Of a DNA stretch of 64,000 nucleotides, positions 20,224 through 20,343 are shown one piece after another; positions within the stretch are counted from its first letter, which is position 1, and every line of letters starts with the position of its first letter. The notes under the pieces are model-generated. The model was not told the origin of the DNA and made no database searches. It worked only from the letters and a program-made list of their open reading frames with translations. This DNA comes from Escherichia coli (GTDB taxonomy: Bacteria > Pseudomonadota > Gammaproteobacteria > Enterobacterales > Enterobacteriaceae). Position numbers and translations under genes: made by a program. The DNA lies in assembly GCF_045037415.1 (NCBI RefSeq), contig NZ_CP173438.1; one strand, given 5' to 3'.

Positions 20224-20251
20224 TTACTGCTTTGACGCCGCATACACTTGA

Positions 20252-20341
20252 TCAACTACTTTCTGCCAAAACAGGGTATTTTGCGGCGCTGACGCTACAG
20301 CTAATAGCCAGCAGAGAAAGATAGAGCATTGTCCGTTTCAT
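20252..20341 (-). pseudogene. yfeW: 29-codon stub with Sec signal peptide (MKRTMLYLSLLAISCSVSAAKYPVLAESS*), 2 nt downstream of murP stop; likely remnant of yfeW (pbp4B)
   Basis: ATG 2 nt after murP stop; classic n/h/c signal-peptide layout, then in-frame TGA after about 8 mature residues; K-12 has a ~434-aa yfeW at this position (from memory). Confidence 0.45.
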
Positions 20342-20343
20342 AA

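Follow-up and report, generated by a model that had tools for sequence, protein, structure and literature searches.

The window, by which we mean the whole stretch of 64,000 nucleotides analysed here, carries on its minus strand an intact murQ–murP pair that runs towards the convergent gene yfeX, with 177 bp between murP (ending at 20344) and yfeX (ending at 20166). The murP stop codon, TGA at 20346-20344, is followed after two nucleotides (tt, 20343-20342) by an ATG at 20341-20339, which opens a short frame, hereafter the stub, that reaches a TGA at 20254-20252 after 29 codons. The first-pass annotation had described this minus-strand ATG 2 nt past murP, the stop after 29 codons and the 177-bp spacing, and all three read in the window as it gave them. 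The spacer consists of the first 82–84 bp and the last 34–36 bp of yfeW (pbp4B), joined out of frame, together with a native hairpin. The features of the locus are as follows.

19267-20166, plus strand: yfeX (porphyrinogen peroxidase), intact, the convergent neighbour.
20187-20220, no strand assigned: native yfeW/yfeX hairpin, a presumed shared terminator, with stem GGCCAGUCAG/CUGGCUGGCC and an extension of A-U pairs.
20224-20257, minus strand: yfeW 3′ remnant, out of frame with the stub and including the original TAA stop at 20226-20224.
20258-20259, minus strand: deletion junction, dinucleotide GT, placed by comparing the intact alleles of O157, 3150 and M00057 with eight carriers of the deletion.
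20260-20341, minus strand: yfeW 5′ remnant, the 82 nt assignable to the 5′ side alone, aligned to positions 4103-4185 of the K-12 MG1655 locus (L001) and to three other intact alleles.
20252-20341, minus strand: stub ORF MKRTMLYLSLLAISCSVSAAKYPVLAESS plus TGA, in which the yfeW signal-peptide region is read on to a stop that is out of frame.
20344-21768, minus strand: murP, intact, 474 aa, the MurNAc-specific PTS EIIBC, annotated in the identical SK1144 record and collinear with K-12 murP.
21772-22668, minus strand: murQ, intact, 298 aa, the first gene of the operon.
22759-22819, no strand assigned (compare L001 767-1683): a second deletion scar on the other side of the operon, with a decayed murR 3′ remnant of about 60 bp (22771-22819).

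In K-12 MG1655, the gene order is murR, murQ, murP, yfeW (1,305 bp, penicillin-binding protein 4B) and yfeX, so the gene of about 1.3 kb that the first-pass annotation placed between murP and yfeX is indeed there, in place of a spacer like that of the window. Comparing the window with the MG1655 locus by blastn gives one block from window 22758-20259 (L001 1684-4185) and a second from window 20259-20192 (L001 5369-5439). Relative to K-12, exactly 1,184 bp of yfeW are absent, in line with the earlier expectation of a gapped alignment with about 1.2 kb missing. Since 1,184 is 3n+2, the 5′ part reads out of frame beyond the junction and meets the TGA two codons on, after codon 29. The proposed deletion remnant with a retained start region is thus borne out, in the form of an internal deletion that keeps both gene ends. 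The opposite polarity, in which yfeW was inserted in K-12, is out, because both ends of the gene persist in the window, joined out of frame. In the intact alleles of O157:H7 (Z1833), 3150 and M00057, the left breakpoint falls at GAAAGT/TCGCC and the right one at GGTTGGGT/AGTTGA, and in most intact alleles GT stands at both breakpoints, which gives a 2-nt microhomology at 20259-20258.

K-12 yfeW (b2430), the third gene of the MurR-controlled murQ-murP-yfeW operon, occupies the same locus as the remnant, with murP upstream and yfeX convergent downstream, and shares with it the first 82–84 nt, the last 34–36 nt, the start context and the hairpin. The window differs from it in that 1,184 internal bp are gone, the frame is broken and neither the beta-lactamase domain nor the SxxK motif remains. 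K-12 in turn differs in having one extra Lys codon and, before yfeX, an insert of about 182 bp with a duplicated hairpin. The total size difference between the two loci, 1,371 bp, accordingly comprises the 1,184-bp deletion, 3 bp for the Lys codon before the stop, 2 bp in the spacer between murP and the ATG, and the REP/BIME insert of about 182 bp.

Two of these smaller differences can be followed across strains. The K-12 MG1655 insert (L001 5421-5600) holds two REP-like palindromes (BIME) and is bordered by the duplicated yfeW/yfeX hairpin. In O157:H7, 3150 and M00057, the yfeW–yfeX spacer measures only 57 bp and has one hairpin, and the same holds for all deletion carriers; because these alleles are without the insert, it is a feature of the K-12 lineage. 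From the murP stop to the ATG, the intervening bases are TT in ST131 and 536, TATC in K-12, O157 and BL21, and TAAT in ETEC6333 and 3150, so the coupling distance from murP to yfeW or to the stub is not fixed.

By inspection, the stub peptide resembles a Sec signal peptide, with K2 and R3, a hydrophobic core from L6 to V17 and V-S-A/A at positions 17–20. Over its first 83 bp, the stub has 95% identity to bases 1–83 of K-12 yfeW, and the peptide aligns to positions 1–28 of the 432 in the NCBIfam model NF002968 (PBP4B) at an E-value of 1.6e-5, both of which back the earlier identification of the stub as the 5′ end of yfeW. The score of 24 bits, against 890 bits for K-12 YfeW, lies below the curated equivalog cut-off of 385 bits, which is set for the whole protein. 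Judged by these matches, the stub is homologous to yfeW and no chance ORF. What was lost is the working part of the enzyme. In K-12 YfeW, the Pfam beta-lactamase domain (PF00144) spans residues 44–412; in the blastn comparison with K-12, the corresponding DNA (L001 4186-5369) is missing from the window, and the catalytic Ser-x-x-Lys (S102-N-T-K105; L001 4406-4417) falls within the deleted segment, so the stub has none. The deletion runs from codon 29 to about codon 423 of 433 and takes the whole beta-lactamase-fold domain and the Ser-x-x-Lys with it. In the ST131 genome listed among the matches of a K-12 yfeW search, no second copy of the gene was found.

The hairpin that follows begins 31 nt past the stub TGA and reads GGCCAGTCAG-TTGTGTTA-CTGGCTGGCC, with A's and T's on either side. 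Its folding energy is −24.5 kcal/mol in the murP sense (z −5.9) and −20.4 kcal/mol in the yfeX sense (z −5.0), and it has the stable G+C-rich stem-loop of an intrinsic (Rho-independent) terminator. Strain 3150, in which pbp4b is intact, carries an identical hairpin 15 nt past its stop; the element is therefore native, and the deletion left it intact, as first proposed. The description of a 'strong bidirectional terminator' survives in part. The hairpin is very stable on both strands, and in the yfeX sense it is followed by a good U-tract (UUUUUAUU), but in the murP sense the tract is short (UUUAAUCA, UUUAAU), and the consensus terminator scan called the hairpin on neither strand. We take it as a presumed terminator because of its folding energy and its position after intact pbp4b genes. 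The murQP transcript would now end at this native hairpin, about 125–155 nt past murP.

The junction is not peculiar to this genome. Among 5,426 complete E. coli genomes, 1,271 (23%) align without a gap over the full 176-bp spacer, and a 1.2-kb query finds the contiguous deleted state in 1,274. K-12 yfeW is covered over at least 80% of its length in 4,148 of the genomes (76% intact), carriers of the deletion matching bases 1–83 only, and at most 7 genomes show any other state. The locus is thus essentially biallelic, with one loss allele. A 25-kb part of the window matches many ST131 genomes at 100% identity, among them EC958, JJ2434, uk_P46212 and O25b:H4. Carriers include ST131, clone D i2, Nissle 1917, 536 and APEC BEN5202 and, at 92–95% identity, BL21 and other B strains, ETEC6333, AST19, B25FEP and 2021CK-01784; they come from humans, animals and wastewater. 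ST131, 536 and Nissle are taken here, by strain name, to be B2. Outside E. coli, the junction pattern finds no match in the GTDB representatives, which hold one genome per species.

The clean retention of the start region and the terminator looks like a designed in-frame knockout, and the first-pass annotation had asked whether the deletion was natural or constructed. The idea that the deletion was made in a laboratory, or that it reflects a misassembly of this single genome, has practically no probability left: the deletion is out of frame, the junction is without foreign, scar or FRT-like sequence, and the identical junction in 1,271 independent complete genomes of clinical, animal and environmental origin refutes it. 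A search of the whole window for an FRT-like scar gave 0 matches at up to 3 mismatches, and there are no foreign bases at the junction, all 177 bp aligning to native E. coli sequence. The deletion is natural, not constructed.

A base-by-base reading of eight carriers (the window, 536, AST19, BL21, B25FEP, ETEC6333, 2021CK-01784 and UID2309220033) shows how closely the copies agree at the breakpoint. All eight have the identical junction, and all eight have a 3′ end of the 1,302 type (CAG-TAA-TAA), with one Lys codon fewer than K-12 and O157. At 20248 each of them has an A, giving GATCAAGT in place of GATCAGGT, where four ordinary intact alleles all have G. BL21 has the 1,302-type end although its murP–yfeW 5′ sequence otherwise matches K-12, which is of the 1,305 type, and this different 3′ end argues that its allele was imported rather than deleted in situ. 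The A is not exclusive to carriers, because at least three genomes, with rare intact alleles of the gene, also have GATCAAGT, namely 2014C-3075 (L013 3756-5057), SCU-301 (L014) and NZ_OZ282453.1. These three may be the closest intact relatives of the ancestor of the deletion allele and are candidates for that place.

Away from the junction, the carriers diverge. The flanks of non-B2 carriers are no closer to ST131 than those of intact alleles (23–30 mismatches per 700 bp in the 3′ half of murP), and in both murP and yfeX these carriers are as distant from ST131 as intact alleles are. Two hairpin types occur among the carriers. From the mosaic flanks and the two hairpin types it follows that a single origin needs either recombination within about 40–90 bp of the junction or great age. 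In favour of independent recurrence at a hotspot, the haplotypes that flank the deletion differ widely among carriers, the 5′ remnants look like the intact alleles of their surroundings (ETEC6333 is like 3150 and M00057, and BL21 is like K-12), and 2021CK-01784, which is deleted, has MurR, MurQ, MurP and UcpA proteins identical to those of M00057, which is intact. We nevertheless regard recurrence as quite improbable, given that a 2-nt microhomology cannot direct repeated identical deletions of 1,184 bp, that other loss alleles are practically absent (at most 7 of the 5,426 genomes), and that the A at 20248 and the 1,302-type 3′ end are common to all eight carriers, including BL21, which is unlike K-12 in this. 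The evidence points to a single old deletion, now on mosaic flanks. An ancestor with the usual murQ-murP-yfeW operon would have lost 1,184 bp inside yfeW in one illegitimate recombination between two GT dinucleotides; the allele would have a single origin, and homologous recombination over short tracts would have spread it to, or kept it in, the lineages that now hold it, namely B2 types (ST131, 536 and Nissle), the B strains with BL21, and some commensals and ETEC.

In every carrier record examined, RefSeq/PGAP places at the same coordinates a pseudo-CDS described as 'hypothetical protein; incomplete; missing C-terminus' (for example DAECLI1_RS06890, ECP_RS27615 and HO397_RS22095, in records of ST131, 536, BL21 and others). 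It is the same feature as the stub, 87 bp or 29 codons without the stop, and it carries no name that marks it as a pbp4b remnant, while the yfeW 3′ remnant is unannotated. The stub is therefore annotated as a pseudogene and not as a small gene, the alternative that the first-pass annotation had set against its own reading; an exact look-up of two stub peptides in a collection of 15 billion proteins found neither, and an Rfam scan of 19000-24000 gave no match at E-values up to 1.

Might the stub have been kept for a function? It could act as a short peptide, secreted or in the membrane, or as an ORF whose coupling to murP serves to stabilise or adjust the expression of that gene. All eight carriers have the 29-codon length, and the ATG always lies 2–4 nt from the murP stop, but the constancy of its length is automatic, because the junction is shared. 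Across the 28 stub codons, distinct codon variants number 10 nonsynonymous and 3 synonymous among the eight carriers, and 2 nonsynonymous and 3 synonymous among four intact alleles; these are small numbers, and they point to relaxed constraint. The changes strike the hydrophobic core (S9Y and Y7C) and the tail, and the stub has no Rfam match and no record as a gene in protein families or databases, PGAP treating it as a pseudogene. A retained function is very unlikely on these grounds, and the pattern points to a sequence under relaxed constraint, with nothing to suggest that it has a role of its own. Coupling to murP termination may still lead to translation of the stub, yielding a signal peptide and about 10 further residues; such a product would presumably be cleaved and degraded without function.

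PBP4b belongs to a redundant set of eight class C PBPs and is present at about 20–30 molecules per generation (PMC4916385), and where that article cites Vega and Ayala (2006) it gives the protein as non-essential. In MG1655, pbp4B is under MurR control together with murQP (PMC9177960). A near-neutral loss is plausible on this literature, because PBP4B is a redundant, very weakly expressed and non-essential DD-carboxypeptidase. We accordingly read the stub as an inert pseudogene remnant of yfeW, left by one natural deletion of 1,184 bp that is shared across lineages and nearly neutral, and we put the probability of this reading at roughly 0.93.

On the other flank of the operon, the window has lost murR, the gene for the repressor of murQP. 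Relative to K-12, about 872 bp are missing (L001 ~812-1683), comprising most of murR and 73 bp of the murR–murQ intergenic region; the coordinates come from blastn and direct reading. The resulting murQ–ucpA junction occurs in 1,050 of the 5,426 genomes, including Nissle 1917 and SK1144. Strain 536 is also without murR, and non-B2 carriers of the yfeW deletion retain it. In the lineage of the window, murQP is all that survives of murR-murQ-murP-yfeW.

Jaeger and Mayer (2008) reportedly found that murQ transcription needs cAMP-CAP at an upstream class I site; the promoter, operator and CAP positions used here are putative and come from our own reading of the sequence. In K-12, a CAP-like site upstream of murQ, TATGACGCTCTTCACA (L001 1655-1670), has 9 of 10 consensus positions and lies within the DNA deleted in the window. 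The window has another, weaker CAP-like motif, TTTCAGTGACATCACA (22787-22772, minus strand, 8 of 10 consensus positions), made from the murR 3′ remnant, and from its centre to the murQ ATG there are 111.5 nt, exactly as for the K-12 site. In the 12 murR-intact genomes examined, the corresponding stretch of murR is TTTCAATGACTCCACA without exception. The chance of an 8-of-10 CAP-like match is about 4e-4 per position, as judged post hoc, and the placement of TTTCAGTGACATCACA at the original distance may reflect either coincidence or the compensatory re-creation of a candidate CAP site.

A further question is whether positive selection, rather than neutral decay, accounts for the loss of PBP4B in the lineages that carry it, perhaps jointly with the murR deletion in B2. 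The allele has reached 23% of genomes and is present in the very successful lineages ST131, 536 and Nissle; the B2 genomes examined have both genes flanking murQP deleted, with murQ and murP intact, and a murR knockout in MG1655 grows faster on MurNAc (PMC9177960). Set against this, the database consists mostly of clinical isolates, and the frequency reflects sampling and clonal expansion; the yfeW and murR losses are separable, non-B2 carriers keeping murR; and no PBP4B phenotype is reported (PMC4916385). We hold selection to be unlikely, though with an appreciable chance. A bolder version is a long shot: the MurNAc locus would have been trimmed adaptively in phylogroup-B2 (extraintestinal pathogenic) E. 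coli, the yfeW deletion being one half of this process and the loss of murR and the native CAP-like site the other, so that murQP would stand bare behind the new CAP-like motif TTTCAGTGACATCACA; MurNAc uptake and catabolism in B2 would be constitutive yet catabolite-controlled and without a co-transcribed carboxypeptidase, and the pbp4B polymorphism would be kept by selection across E. coli.

Under the reading as an inert, nearly neutral remnant, the yfeW remnant is real but ordinary, known in kind and already annotated as a pseudogene. It resembles lineage-specific remnants of gene decay in E. coli in general in its short microhomology (GT), its kept gene ends and its relaxed constraint. Unlike them, it is unusually widespread, at 23% of genomes in several phylogroups and on mosaic flanks, and as one deletion allele, wide and mosaic, it is a small example of an old structural polymorphism moved across phylogroups by recombination. 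In the literature searched on yfeW and PBP4B, we found no description of this allele. In practice the finding matters only modestly. ST131, other B2 lineages, and BL21 and other B strains have no PBP4B, which is best treated as an accessory gene in which a single null allele predominates; this is relevant to DD-carboxypeptidase redundancy, to beta-lactam targets and to 'PBP4B' calls by resistance-gene pipelines; one survey called PBP4B in 143 of 148 isolates (PMC11237492). A better annotation for the remnant would be pbp4b pseudogene, not 'hypothetical protein'. As a lead, some novelty attaches only to B2 strains having lost murR, the CAP-like site and yfeW together; since these strains are without murR and that site, the K-12 rules for the regulation of MurNAc catabolism probably do not apply there.

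Three minor observations concern yfeX and its neighbours. The YfeX, YfeY and YfeZ proteins of 2014C-3075, SCU-301 and NZ_OZ282453.1 match those of the B2 strain 536. Antisense to yfeX, an ATG-started ORF of 308 aa (window 19255-20181, minus strand) spans the whole gene and begins just past the hairpin; it is open in K-12 and O157:H7 as well, and its codon position 1 lies opposite position 3 of yfeX. In this frame, antisense stops match the rare sense codons TTA, CTA and TCA, and the ORF is for that reason most likely a shadow ORF. Finally, the yfeZ–yfeY spacer measures 206 bp in AST19 (L003 2691-2896) and BL21 (L004 2221-2426). The other loci, that of the window lineage included, have 60 bp there, and the longer form is probably another small insertion of a repeat element.
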